A DNA stretch of 64,000 bases, from IMG/VR virus record IMGVR_UViG_3300021256_000065. One strand, given 5' to 3'. The translations under genes and the position numbers were made by a program. The notes beneath the pieces are model-generated. The model had not been told where the DNA came from. It worked only from the letters and a program-made list of their open reading frames with translations, and did not search any database. This document shows positions 18,061 to 27,417 of this stretch, in pieces (positions within the stretch are counted from its first letter, which is position 1; every line of letters starts with the position of its first letter). Source of the stretch: a virus.

Positions 18061-21000
18061 TTAATTTCTTAATGCTCTTTGAATTGCCATATTCGCAAGT
18101 TCATAGAATGCATCTTCAATTTCTTTTCTAGTATTAACATTTGGAAATACTGCTTCAATATTCACAGTTTGTTCAATACTTTCACCATTAGTATTATCAA
18201 ATAAATTACTAAAACCGCCTTTGATATTATTTGCTCTTGAGTATAAAGAACCTTCTAATGAAGTCTTTAATTCCTCTAAGATAATAGCCATAGTGCTAAC
18301 TCGCTCATTTAATCTATTTATTCGTTCATCACTTGATAATGAATCCATTGTAGCATCTTCAAAGATTTGCATCATTCCAGATAATTGTGAACCATACACT
18401 GTACTATCGGCTTGATCTAATCCATTAAGAACCTGATCTTTTGCGGCATCCCAAGTACCAAGTCCAATAGATTTATCATCTATTTTATTAAAATCATTTG
18501 TATCATTTGCGGATTTCAGATTTGTTTGCTGAAGGAGATCATGTATAGTACCACTTGTAATCATTGCATTTTTAGTAACTTCTTTATAAGCTTCTGCAAG
18601 AGAATGAATATAATCTCTTAAACTAGCAACTTTTGTCATTTCTTTATCCATGTTTGTCATAAGAGCATCATTAGCAGTAATTAATTTACTAGTCTATTCA
18701 GCTAAAGCACTAACACCTTCTTTTGTTTTTTCAAAATCAGTTCCCGCGCTTTCCGCAGTTTCTTTTACATCATTTTTATATTCTTTAGATGCTTCACCAA
18801 CTTTTTCAAAAGCCTACTGACAAGTTGGAACAAAACCGCCCTCTTTAGTCATAGCATCCATCATTGCCTGAATACCACTATCCCAAGTAGGAACTAAATC
18901 TTTCATTATTAAGTCTTTTTCTTCAATGGATAAATTCTTATAATGTTTTGCATCTTCATTATTAAGTAACGCATAATCTTGTAATGCTGAATCAGTTAAA
19001 TTACCTCTAATAACTTCATTCTAAGCAAGTTTACCATTAATATATTCTGCATACTGCTGTTGTAATAATGCAGCCTATCTAGCTTGATCTTCCTAACTCT
19101 TTGACATATCAGACATAATTGCTTTATACTAAGATTGAAAATCTTTCCAAGCCTGTAATGCATCAGATAAATTAGAATTATATCTTTCTTTATCAAAGTT
19201 ATATAAATCATTATTAAGCTAAGCTAATCTTCGCTGAGTCTATAAAATATCATCATCATCCGCAATATATTCATATGAATAGTTGCCTTGAGAATCTCTC
19301 TTTAATCTCATAGTAGTTTTTGCAGCTTGTGCATCTTCTAATGCAATTCTGGCTTGTTCTAATTCCAACAGCTTCTGAGCACGCTCGACATCATACTCAG
19401 TTAACTTATCTTTATTTTCAAGATTAGTTAATTGTTCATCCATCAATCGTTTTAATGCCTGTTGATTTTTTAAATCTTTAGTATCATTAATAGCCTTATT
19501 AAACTATCCTCTTAAATCTTGAAGCGCAAAAGCAGCATTAATAGTATCATAATACTCGTCTGCATTTTTATTCAACAGATCCCATTCTTTTTCAACAAAA
19601 TCAGAGCCTTTTCCGTCACTAATTCTTCTATCTAACTCATCAAAGATTTTATTAATAGAATTAATGTATTTATCTTGAATAGTTTGAATAGATTGTCCAA
19701 TCATACTATTTAAATTGCCAATAGTCTAACGATAATGTTGTTCAAACTTTTCTGCGGCATTGGTATCTCCTGCGTCAACGGCGGCCTGCCATCTTTCTTT
19801 CCACCACGCCGCCTGTTGCCTTAAGAAATCTATTTGCTTATTAGAATTTTCATTAAGCTAAGTATAATATTTATCCATCGCCTCATAGTTTTGATCACCA
19901 TATAACAATGATAATAAATCCATATCATGAGTTAACAACTATTCTACAAAACCATAATTCTACATTTGTTTATTAAATTGATTATCAATTTCATCAATAG
20001 TTGAAAGATATGCCTAATCAACTTCATCAATAGAAGATAACATCCCTTCTAACTGATCTTGTAATGATGCTAAATCAGTTTTTAAATTTTCTAAGGCTTT
20101 TTCTTTATCCTTACCATAAATGTCAGAACTTTCACCTCTATTAATTTTTTCAATTTCCGCTTGAGTTTTGATTAATTGATTTGTTATTGTTTCAATCGAG
20201 CCTGCTGTATCACCGTTACCAAAATATGAGAAGAAATCTTTACTACTCTTTGCGGCGTCCGCAAATATTTTATCAAAGTTGCTATCTTTAACAACATCAG
20301 CTTTATCTATTACATTACGATAAAAATCATTCCAATCTCTTTGAGCTGCGCTCATATCAAGATGAACATCAATTGTTGTTCTAAATCTCTAAACATTTTT
20401 TTCAATTCTTTCTTGCTCTGCTTCATTAATATCATCTTTTGAGTCTTCAATCGCTTCTCTTAACTCGTCATAATCTTTTATTTTATCTTTTAAATTCTAT
20501 AGACTATCACTAGCTTTATTAATTTGCTTATCAAGTTTCTATAATCTTTCTTTTAATTTATCTTTTTTATTTTTATTTGTTTCTTTATTATATTCTTTAA
20601 CTAATTTATTATATTTATCAGTTTTCTTATTAACCTAATCTTGCTGTTTACCAACTATTTTCATATAATTGGTAATATTACCATAAGCATCAAAAGTTAC
20701 TCCAAGCCCTTTTAATGCTTTTTGCTGAGAAGCTAAATCTTTCTCTTGAAGTTTTAATTTTTCCTCAAGTTTTTTCTTCTGCTCTTCTAACAGTTTTGAT
20801 TGCTATCTTAAATTATCTAAAAGATCTTTACCATATAAATGGTCTTGCTTCTTTTGTGCGCGGTCAAGGTTTCGATTGATTTTTTCAATTTGGATATTTA
20901 TATCATGATAAATATCTCTTTCATCTTCAATCTTCTTTTTCTTATCTTTTTTTCCTTTATCAGGTTTTGCAGTAGATCCTTTACTGCCGCCTTTGCCACC

Positions 21001-27000: not shown

Positions 27001-27417
27001 CGCCATTGAAGTAGCCATACTGTCTAATAATTTATTACTTTGTCTTAATTGAACATTTGTATTTAAAATTTGTGTAGCAACGTTATTAAACGCCGCCTGT
27101 CCAGCCGCGCCAACTTGAGAAAAAGCTTGTTGGACTTGACTAATAGAGCTACCAGAATTTTTTAAAGTCTTATTAAATTGTTCAATATTAAGAGTATTTA
27201 ATTTCGTATTGAAGGCTTTCTTTAATGCATTTTCTACATTCGTCGCCTATGTTTTTACTTGTCTTAAAGTTTCTGTTGCGGAGGCGGCGTCTGTATTATT
27301 AATCTTCATTACATCACTGATTTTTAATTTCTGTATCTATTGCAATGAAGATTTTAATTGGTTCAACCCTTCTTTTTGAATGTCAAAACCAACTTGATAT
27401 TTAATCTGATTCGCCAT
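18061..27417 (-). CDS. Tail tape measure protein, ~3119 codons, with dozens of in-frame TAG codons.
   Basis: ATG at 27415-27417 after TAAGGAGATAAAAGG. First TAG at 27337-27339. All nine same-frame ORF-track fragments end in TAG (25753, 24514, 23755, 23314, 21319, 20803, 20014, 19504, 19240). Hand-translated 18661-18720 and 21541-21780 are continuous. Stop is TAA at 18061-18063. Contains the TP901-type TMP core (…MAALGFNVLDANGHLRDTGEVIEEIGGRWESLTREQQINLAQ…). There are long Q/E/K/A/L coiled-coil stretches and a G/K-rich low-complexity insert (20920-21100). Confidence 0.65.

Follow-up and report, generated by a model that had tools for sequence, protein, structure and literature searches.

A 3,118-codon phage tape measure gene in which TAG appears to encode glutamate

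A 64,000-nt stretch of phage DNA (IMG/VR record IMGVR_UViG_3300021256_000065, hereafter the window) carries on its minus strand, at positions 18061-27417, one very long gene for a tail tape measure protein (TMP) that is interrupted by numerous TAG codons. The best explanation, which we hold to be highly likely, is a single TMP gene specifying a tail of about 470 nm, with TAG translated as glutamate through a phage-encoded tRNA(CUA). The phage is siphovirus-like, roughly 130 kb in size, and known from rumen/gut samples; it is related to phAss-1, the Lactococcus phage 949 group, Geobacillus virus E3 and SPbeta-like phages.

One tape measure gene across 85 TAG codons

The reading frame runs from ATG at 27415-27417 to TAA at 18061-18063, comprising 3,118 sense codons with 85 in-frame TAG and neither TAA nor TGA. 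From base composition, about 214 TAA or TGA codons would be expected over this length (probability of none approximately 1e-96), and 157 and 448 were counted in the other two minus-strand frames. A first-pass annotation had described one ATG-to-TAA frame with TAG as its only interruption, and a computed check of the full gene, finding none of the approximately 214 expected stops, bears this out. Treating TAG as a sense codon raises the coverage of the window by open reading frames (ORFs) from 60% to 86%. Under translation table 11, the longest same-frame fragment has 201 aa (25753-26358) and two stretches (21595-23313 and 26359-27417) hold none of at least 60 aa, as had been noted. The accompanying statement that TAG recurs at least every 60 codons in these stretches does not hold, as TAG-free runs reach 86 and 127 codons; the ORF track is empty there because start codons come late. 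Nevertheless, TAG is a frequently used codon in this gene, as originally proposed, and makes up 27% of its TAG, GAA, and GAG codons.

The short table-11 ORFs would also be compatible with a decayed or fragmented gene in which TAG still acts as a stop, but the frame statistics already refute this, and we consider it practically untenable. Moreover, in two genomes approximately 98% identical to the window, 84 of 85 (L003) and 85 of 85 (L004) TAG codons are kept. In addition, homology of the window gene to relatives continues across TAG codons, and the genome of this phage has a tRNA(CUA). The interval 18061-27417 is one real gene, not several.

Matches to TIGR01760 (aa 157-496, E=6e-31, 107.7 bits against a cut-off of 28.8) and PF10145 (aa 195-399, E=2e-29, 103.1 bits against 33.2) place the TP901-type core at these codons and not at 400-600, where it had first been located, and PHROG tape-measure families span aa 1-590. 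Because both profile matches exceed their cut-offs and relatives possess colinear TMPs, the product is, on profile and alignment evidence, a genuine TP901-type tail tape measure protein, in agreement with the initial reading of one very long tape-measure gene. The core contains five TAG codons, all on Glu or Asp columns of the aligned relatives. With megablast, the gene had no match among GenBank phages; at the protein level, similarity to relatives is colinear over the N-terminal ~600 aa and the C-terminal third (~aa 1800-3118), while the middle is unconserved. BLASTP identity of the C-terminal third is 41-53% to L005, L006, and L011 and 23-35% to standard-code relatives and phAss-1.

No Pfam or PHROG family matched the middle region (~aa 620-1795). 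Of 109 sliding windows along the entire TMP, 37 showed a 3.5-residue periodicity, and some of these fall in this region. We take the middle to be the length-setting ruler, for which a lack of conservation is expected, so that the fast-evolving ruler would be flanked by two conserved parts, the TP901-type domain at the N-terminus and the C-terminal third. The most hydrophobic segment (Table 1) sits in a Gly/Ala/Ile-rich stretch (~aa 770-850) and may be membrane-inserting. Further, a Gly/Lys-rich insert had been reported at about 20920-21100. The stretch itself was recovered, whereas its description as an insert does not fit, since its position is conserved: a linker at 0.60-0.67 of TMP length also occurs in L006, L011, L008, and phAss-1. 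It is preceded by the sequence KSSGGGFKFKQASN, and the motif KSSGGGFK(F/Y)K.ASN precedes the Gly/Lys-rich stretch in both the window and relatives. This linker may serve as a hinge or undergo processing. There was no sign of a fused unrelated domain, contrary to the suggestion of a fused coiled-coil or ejection-protein domain, and a check for internal promoters revealed no excess in the gene (63 promoter-like sites versus 59 +/- 9 in shuffled sequences).

Table 1. Features of the tape measure gene and its immediate neighbours in the window
Feature	Position	Strand	Evidence or remarks
111-aa ORF	27641..27976	-	opens the minus-strand block and lies shortly upstream of the TMP gene; no TAG, no PHROG match
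TMP gene	18061..27417	-	3,118 codons + TAA, 85 in-frame TAG; colinear homologous ORFs of 2,613-3,299 aa
TP901-type core domain, aa 157-496	25930..26949	-	TIGR01760 and PF10145 matches, alignments
Most hydrophobic segment, aa 820-839	24901..24960	-	Kyte-Doolittle scan
Poorly conserved middle, ~aa 620-1795, helical/heptad-like	22033..25560	-	no BLASTP similarity to relatives
Conserved C-terminal third, ~aa 1796-3118	18064..22032	-	colinear with relatives including phAss-1
Gly/Lys/Ser-rich low-complexity linker, aa 2103-2163	20929..21111	-	weak phrog_26112 match
Terminator-like hairpin directly after the TMP TAA	18036..18055	-	
1,681-aa tail fibre/tip protein	12710..17755	-	24 TAG; phrog_5481, and phrog_1980 tail fibre at the C-terminus

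The first-pass annotation had called the gene exceptional in length, which is not the case within its family. Among relatives drawn from IMG/VR and GenBank, TMPs of 2,600-3,300 aa are usual, standard-code members included: L008 (3,287 aa), L010 (3,299 aa), and L012 (3,040 aa) have no in-frame TAG and L002 (2,953 aa) has one, while 85 are found in L006 (2,854 aa), 47 in L011 (2,613 aa), and 110 in phAss-1 (L001; 3,150 aa). The homologous TMP of Lactococcus phage 949 has 3,276 aa, and tails of 500 nm and 480 nm have been reported for 949 and phiL47, respectively (PMC3888941). This corresponds to approximately 0.153 nm per residue in 949, making the tape-measure rule invoked in the first-pass annotation plausible. 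Applied to 3,118 aa, the same ratio predicts a tail of approximately 470 nm, its length set by one mostly helical chain that would lie inside the tail tube. Both TMP size and predicted tail are ordinary for this long-tailed family.

A single chain might also act as a partial ruler only, with cleavage at the linker or with the C-terminal third serving as an ejection or tail-tip protein, which would result in a tail shorter than 470 nm. TMP processing occurs in lambda and T5, and the conserved low-complexity linker at the same relative position in several relatives would provide a site for it. However, the full 3,276 aa of the 949 TMP fit its 500-nm tail at 0.153 nm per residue and the length class of 2,600-3,300 aa is conserved throughout, rendering a partial ruler unlikely compared with a ruler formed by the complete chain.

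One close relative (L016 10001-20521; Logan SRR20337180_3443) has an interrupted TMP, consisting of a 407-aa N-terminal ORF ending in TAA, a 1.7-kb spacer, and a 2,528-aa ORF. The interruption may be an intron or a mobile-element insertion. Database homologues of 376 or 407 aa are numerous, suggesting that interruptions of this type are common.

The amino acid read at TAG

TAG in this clade appears to encode Glu rather than Gln, as judged by its exchange with GAA and GAG, its position in Glu columns, its use at key Glu residues of the terminase and endolysin, and a control with phAss-1. For codon exchange, 78 ORFs of this genome were aligned by codon with approximately 120 related loci; they were taken from the window and from L018 and L048, two loci of an IMG/VR contig that is 98-99% identical to the window and is not the window's own record. 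When the table-15 translation was compared with standard-code relatives, mostly Glu was found opposite TAG and Gln opposite CAA/CAG. Among pairs of 85-95% nucleotide identity, TAG was matched by TAG (66), GAA (61), GAG (18), and CAA (6) and never by CAG. Viewed from the sense codons, 6.5% of GAG, 4.0% of GAA, 1.1% of CAG, and 0% of CAA sites were paired with TAG, while CAG/CAA exchange in the same pairs amounted to 42%. The majority non-TAG partner at 162 unique TAG sites was E in 58 cases, followed by K (10), D (9), and Q (3), and in the TMP alone the partner codons were GAA (46), GAT (12), GAG (8), CAA (6), and CAG (5). The exchange profile of TAG is quantitatively like that of GAA, with D, K, A, and Q partners in matching proportions.

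Conserved columns point in the same direction. Six late genes were each aligned over 32-62 relatives, and a column was regarded as conserved if at least 80% of the sense-coded sequences agreed. Of 81 such columns containing TAG, 74 were Glu, four Asp, two Gln, and one Met. Moreover, one likelihood procedure with the same reference sets was applied to both phAss-1 and this phage: it returned Gln for phAss-1 (logL E-Q = -26.6), as published, and Glu for this phage (logL E-Q = +83.6; +5.5 with cultured phages alone). Two other arguments were abandoned. Apparent support for Gln from Q residues in database homologues was rejected, as table 15 had been used to call these proteins and part of their Q at these sites is TAG itself, and an argument from invariant columns via phAss-1 was dropped because TAG of phAss-1 is also located in invariant R and D columns.

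TAG is also found at invariant or catalytic Glu positions. In the terminase motif GGLMEEC, the EE pair is invariant in the family and also present in the cultured standard-code phages 949, Geobacillus E3, and Sundance; nine relatives encode it as E-TAG and one as TAG-E. The pair lies approximately 100 aa past a Walker-A-like motif (PRAYSKS) and ahead of an ITTAG motif. The second case is an endolysin gene with seven TAG codons just left of the window. Both this gene and the tRNA cluster discussed below were assigned to the window's own record via ENA ERZ12302812 NODE_417 (L172), which matches the first 11.7 kb of the window without a difference (100% identity over 11,745 nt). The endolysin segment AAQCCL-TAG-NGYG aligns to AQAALETGWG of the FlgJ structures 3vwo and 2zyc, with TAG at the GH73 catalytic Glu; the PF01832 match includes this site, and PDB 3k3t is a Glu-to-Ala mutant at the matching residue. 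Gln at this position is expected to impair catalysis.

The table-15 translation proposed in the first-pass annotation would make TAG a Gln codon. Under this alternative, TAG arose mostly from GAG at tolerant surface positions, which would explain why relatives have Glu there. All published phage reassignments of TAG are indeed to Gln (survey preprint; PMC10607447), and exchanging Glu for Gln is conservative. In addition, CAA or CAG faces TAG at a minority of sites, and genomes that are 98% identical differ once by TAG against CAG. However, half of the TAG sites pair with GAA/GAG at 85-95% identity, while ordinary Gln codons pair with Glu in less than 1% of cases. A single transition turns CAG into TAG, but TAG is the partner at only 1.1% of CAG sites, compared with the 42% exchange between CAG and CAA. 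Thus, Gln is hard to reconcile with the data, as Glu would have had to be replaced by Gln massively and repeatedly, even at catalytic residues, over a codon path of two steps, while the synonymous path by a single transition would be hardly used. Given further that TAG is found on the GH73 catalytic Glu and on the invariant terminase EE in 10 relatives, and that the same method yields Gln for the phAss-1 control, we regard Gln as very improbable; the table-15 reading is contradicted by codon exchange, conserved columns, catalytic residues, and the control phage alike.

The probable suppressor tRNA and the genome around the gene

Searches of the window and approximately 80 kb of flanking or related sequence yielded neither a tRNA nor an Rfam family. 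At 11-17.5 kb to the left of the window, 16-17 tRNA genes on its plus strand form a cluster (L178 3180-9650). It includes a tRNA(CUA) of 74 nt (L178 6228-6301, 14.4 kb left of window position 1) with the sequence GCGGCAATAGTGGAGTGGTTTAACACAGCGGTCTCTAAAACCGCGGATCCTGGGTTCGAATCCCAGTTGCCGTA, which is the likely reader of TAG. It folds as a cloverleaf with G1.U72, A73, U11-A24, and a 9-nt D loop and lacks both the U1-A72 pair and the G73 discriminator, the hallmarks of bacterial tRNA-Gln and of recognition by GatCAB. Its D arm is tRNA-Glu-like. Over the whole sequence, similarity to Glu, Gln, and other tRNAs is 42-51 identities each and thus does not discriminate the isotype. A relative (L174) has a tRNA(CUA) with an identical body and a different acceptor stem that adjoins a tRNA-Glu(UUC). 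Scans of bacterial genomes with the tRNA(CUA) body or D arm produced no match in one case and two chance matches without tRNAs in the other, and thus gave no clue to the host. We infer that the host glutamyl-tRNA synthetase (GluRS) would charge this tRNA with Glu, and that the product would escape conversion to Gln-tRNA owing to the missing U1-A72 pair and the tRNA-Glu-like D arm.

TAG might also be ambiguous, with a mixture of Glu and Gln arising from partial GatCAB transamidation or competing charging by the glutaminyl-tRNA synthetase (GlnRS), leading to statistical proteins. The mixed identity of the tRNA(CUA), with G1.U72 as a weak first pair and a CUA anticodon resembling CUG, would suit such a scenario, as would the few TAG sites in Gln columns. 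On the other hand, TAG is tolerated at catalytic and invariant Glu positions and its exchange profile is quantitatively that of true Glu codons, so that we deem a mixture improbable.

Several observations nonetheless weigh against Glu as the meaning of TAG and against the predicted tail. The amino-acid assignment is drawn from sequence evolution and conserved residues. A few TAG sites face Gln codons in the closest relatives (e.g. TMP alignment columns 6, 10, and 187), and the one TAG/CAG difference to a 98% identical genome belongs here as well. The tRNA(CUA) is not a clear copy of a tRNA-Glu, being identical at just 49 of 79 positions to the tRNA-Glu(UUC) of the relative, and its acceptor stem fits neither the Glu nor the Gln identity set of Escherichia coli. 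In organisms that possess GlnRS, this enzyme tends to charge amber suppressors, and the host of this phage may be such an organism. Further, we presume the terminase motif to be Walker B by its position and by analogy with T4 gp17; sequence searches of Pfam and PDB with the terminase returned no match. Finally, the tail length for this uncultured clade is predicted from a cultured relative (949) only.

Additional elements were noticed in and around the tRNA cluster. The cluster also holds, approximately 13.8 kb left of the window, a tRNA(UUA) of the ochre type with a tRNA-Glu-like D arm (L178 6810-6884). Even so, TAA serves as the main stop codon and is absent from the interior of the TMP reading frame. 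A sigma-70-family factor with regions 1.2-4 is encoded inside the cluster (L178 3343-4257) and may control late transcription, a DUF2828/DUF7788 protein adjoins the cluster (L178 11248-12759), and a weak, sub-threshold Rfam match to YrlA (Y RNA-like) overlaps two tRNAs (L178 7177-7288). Two odd genes in related contigs (L134 10957-11052 and 11402-11469; also in L055 and L057) were considered as suppressors and rejected: the variable region of the first, a tRNA(CAU), carries an insertion of 30 nt, and the second, which is tRNA-like, has no anticodon, as its anticodon stem ends in a loop of 3 nt.

The distribution of TAG along the genome is uneven. It is absent from nearly all plus-strand early and replication genes and dense in tail, head, and lysis genes. 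The TMP gene is followed by the 1,681-aa fibre-like gene, in which TAG accounts for 22% of TAG and GAR codons, and by further fibre genes. If read as Glu, TAG would supply 27% of the Glu positions in the TMP. Given the late-gene bias, translation of late proteins would hang on expression of the suppressor tRNA, and the TMP with its 85 TAG codons would be the most dependent of all. This distribution fits the published idea that recoding ties the synthesis of late and lytic proteins to the suppressor (survey preprint).

The late genes are organized in two minus-strand blocks (L048 2323-11667 and L018 11560-20148 versus window 1-27976), one containing terminase, portal, capsid, and tail tube and the other TMP, tail tip, fibres, and endolysin. 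Approximately 46 kb of plus-strand early and replication genes lie between them, so that the TMP gene is not beside the tube and chaperone genes. A 1,318-aa ORF just right of the window (L014) probably encodes DNA polymerase III alpha, judged by size only; this enzyme is one of the signature proteins of phAss-1-like phages, along with TerL, MCP, and TMP. Within the fibre region, two minus-strand ORFs (window 2231-5557 and 5554-8604) overlap by ATGA and match consecutive parts of phrog_14959 (2,494 residues), representing either a split fibre gene or a frameshift, whether programmed or accidental. The small proteins encoded among the fibre genes (window 8936-10844, minus strand) are Gly/Asn/Cys-rich at 10011-10844 and Gly/Arg/Met-rich at 8936-9526 and match only PHROGs of unknown function. 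The fibre fragment at the left end (window 3-602) had no relative in IMG/VR, which we attribute to fibre variability.

Comparison with known systems

A giant TAG-rich TMP is not new in itself, as TMPs of 3,149-3,209 aa broken by TAG have already been published for phAss-1-like phages (PMC10607447). What differs is the meaning of the codon. In phages whose code is unlike that of their host, a survey preprint reports only TAG to Gln and TGA to Trp and ascribes this to GlnRS and TrpRS being susceptible to suppressor tRNAs; a limited literature search produced no report of TAG to Glu in phages. We consider it likely that a widespread rumen/gut clade of phages of approximately 130 kb reads TAG as Glu via a tRNA(CUA) that host GluRS charges and that evades the Gln pathway, a code undescribed in any virus or prokaryote, and that phAss-1 arrived independently at TAG as Gln. 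The clade is represented by several hundred related contigs in IMG/VR. A public protein collection calls its contigs with table 15 (P0001, P0002; L016, L017) and writes TAG as Q; if our reading is true, the public proteins of this clade carry a Glu-to-Gln error at each TAG, catalytic residues included. It would also mean that a third synthetase system can be hijacked by phage suppressor tRNAs and that two related lineages with differing TAG meaning offer a natural comparison. Glu and Gln at TAG positions are distinguishable by metaproteomics through their mass difference of 0.98 Da.

Among cultured phages, Lactococcus 949/phiL47 (Audreyjarvisvirus), Geobacillus virus E3, and SPbeta-like siphoviruses share homologous TMP N-terminal domains and terminases with this phage and likewise have large genomes of 115-170 kb. 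However, their code is the standard one and their late modules are contiguous, whereas the late blocks described here are approximately 46 kb apart. Glu as the meaning of TAG is known from nuclear codes 30 and 31 (peritrich ciliates and Blastocrithidia), where both TAG and TAA are read as Glu. These codes are eukaryotic and apply genome-wide, while the present case concerns a virus in a presumably standard-code bacterium, with TAA as the main stop. Code-15 phages such as crAss-like and Lak phages (Borges et al.; Peters et al. 2022) resemble this clade in the reassigned stop codon, its concentration in late, structural, and lysis genes, and a phage-encoded suppressor tRNA. There, TAG is Gln, as verified by proteomics, in contrast to the Glu suggested for this clade by all comparative tests.

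The closest parallel is phAss-1 of the proposed Phassvirus group (Babkin et al. 2023, PMC10607447), which comprises gut phages of approximately 130 kb with TAG-rich late genes, TMPs of 3,149-3,209 aa that are colinear with the present one at both ends, and tRNA clusters including tRNA(CUA). phAss-1 itself has three different tRNA(CUA) genes (L182 48446-48611, L015 19745-19821), one of them 88 nt in length with a long extra arm of the class II type. Despite these similarities, TMP identity is only 28-32% and gene order differs between the two phages. One of the three tRNA(CUA) genes of phAss-1 was examined and has U1-A72 and G73, as opposed to G1.U72, A73, and U11-A24 in this phage, and TAG behaves as Gln in phAss-1 while it appears to stand for Glu here.

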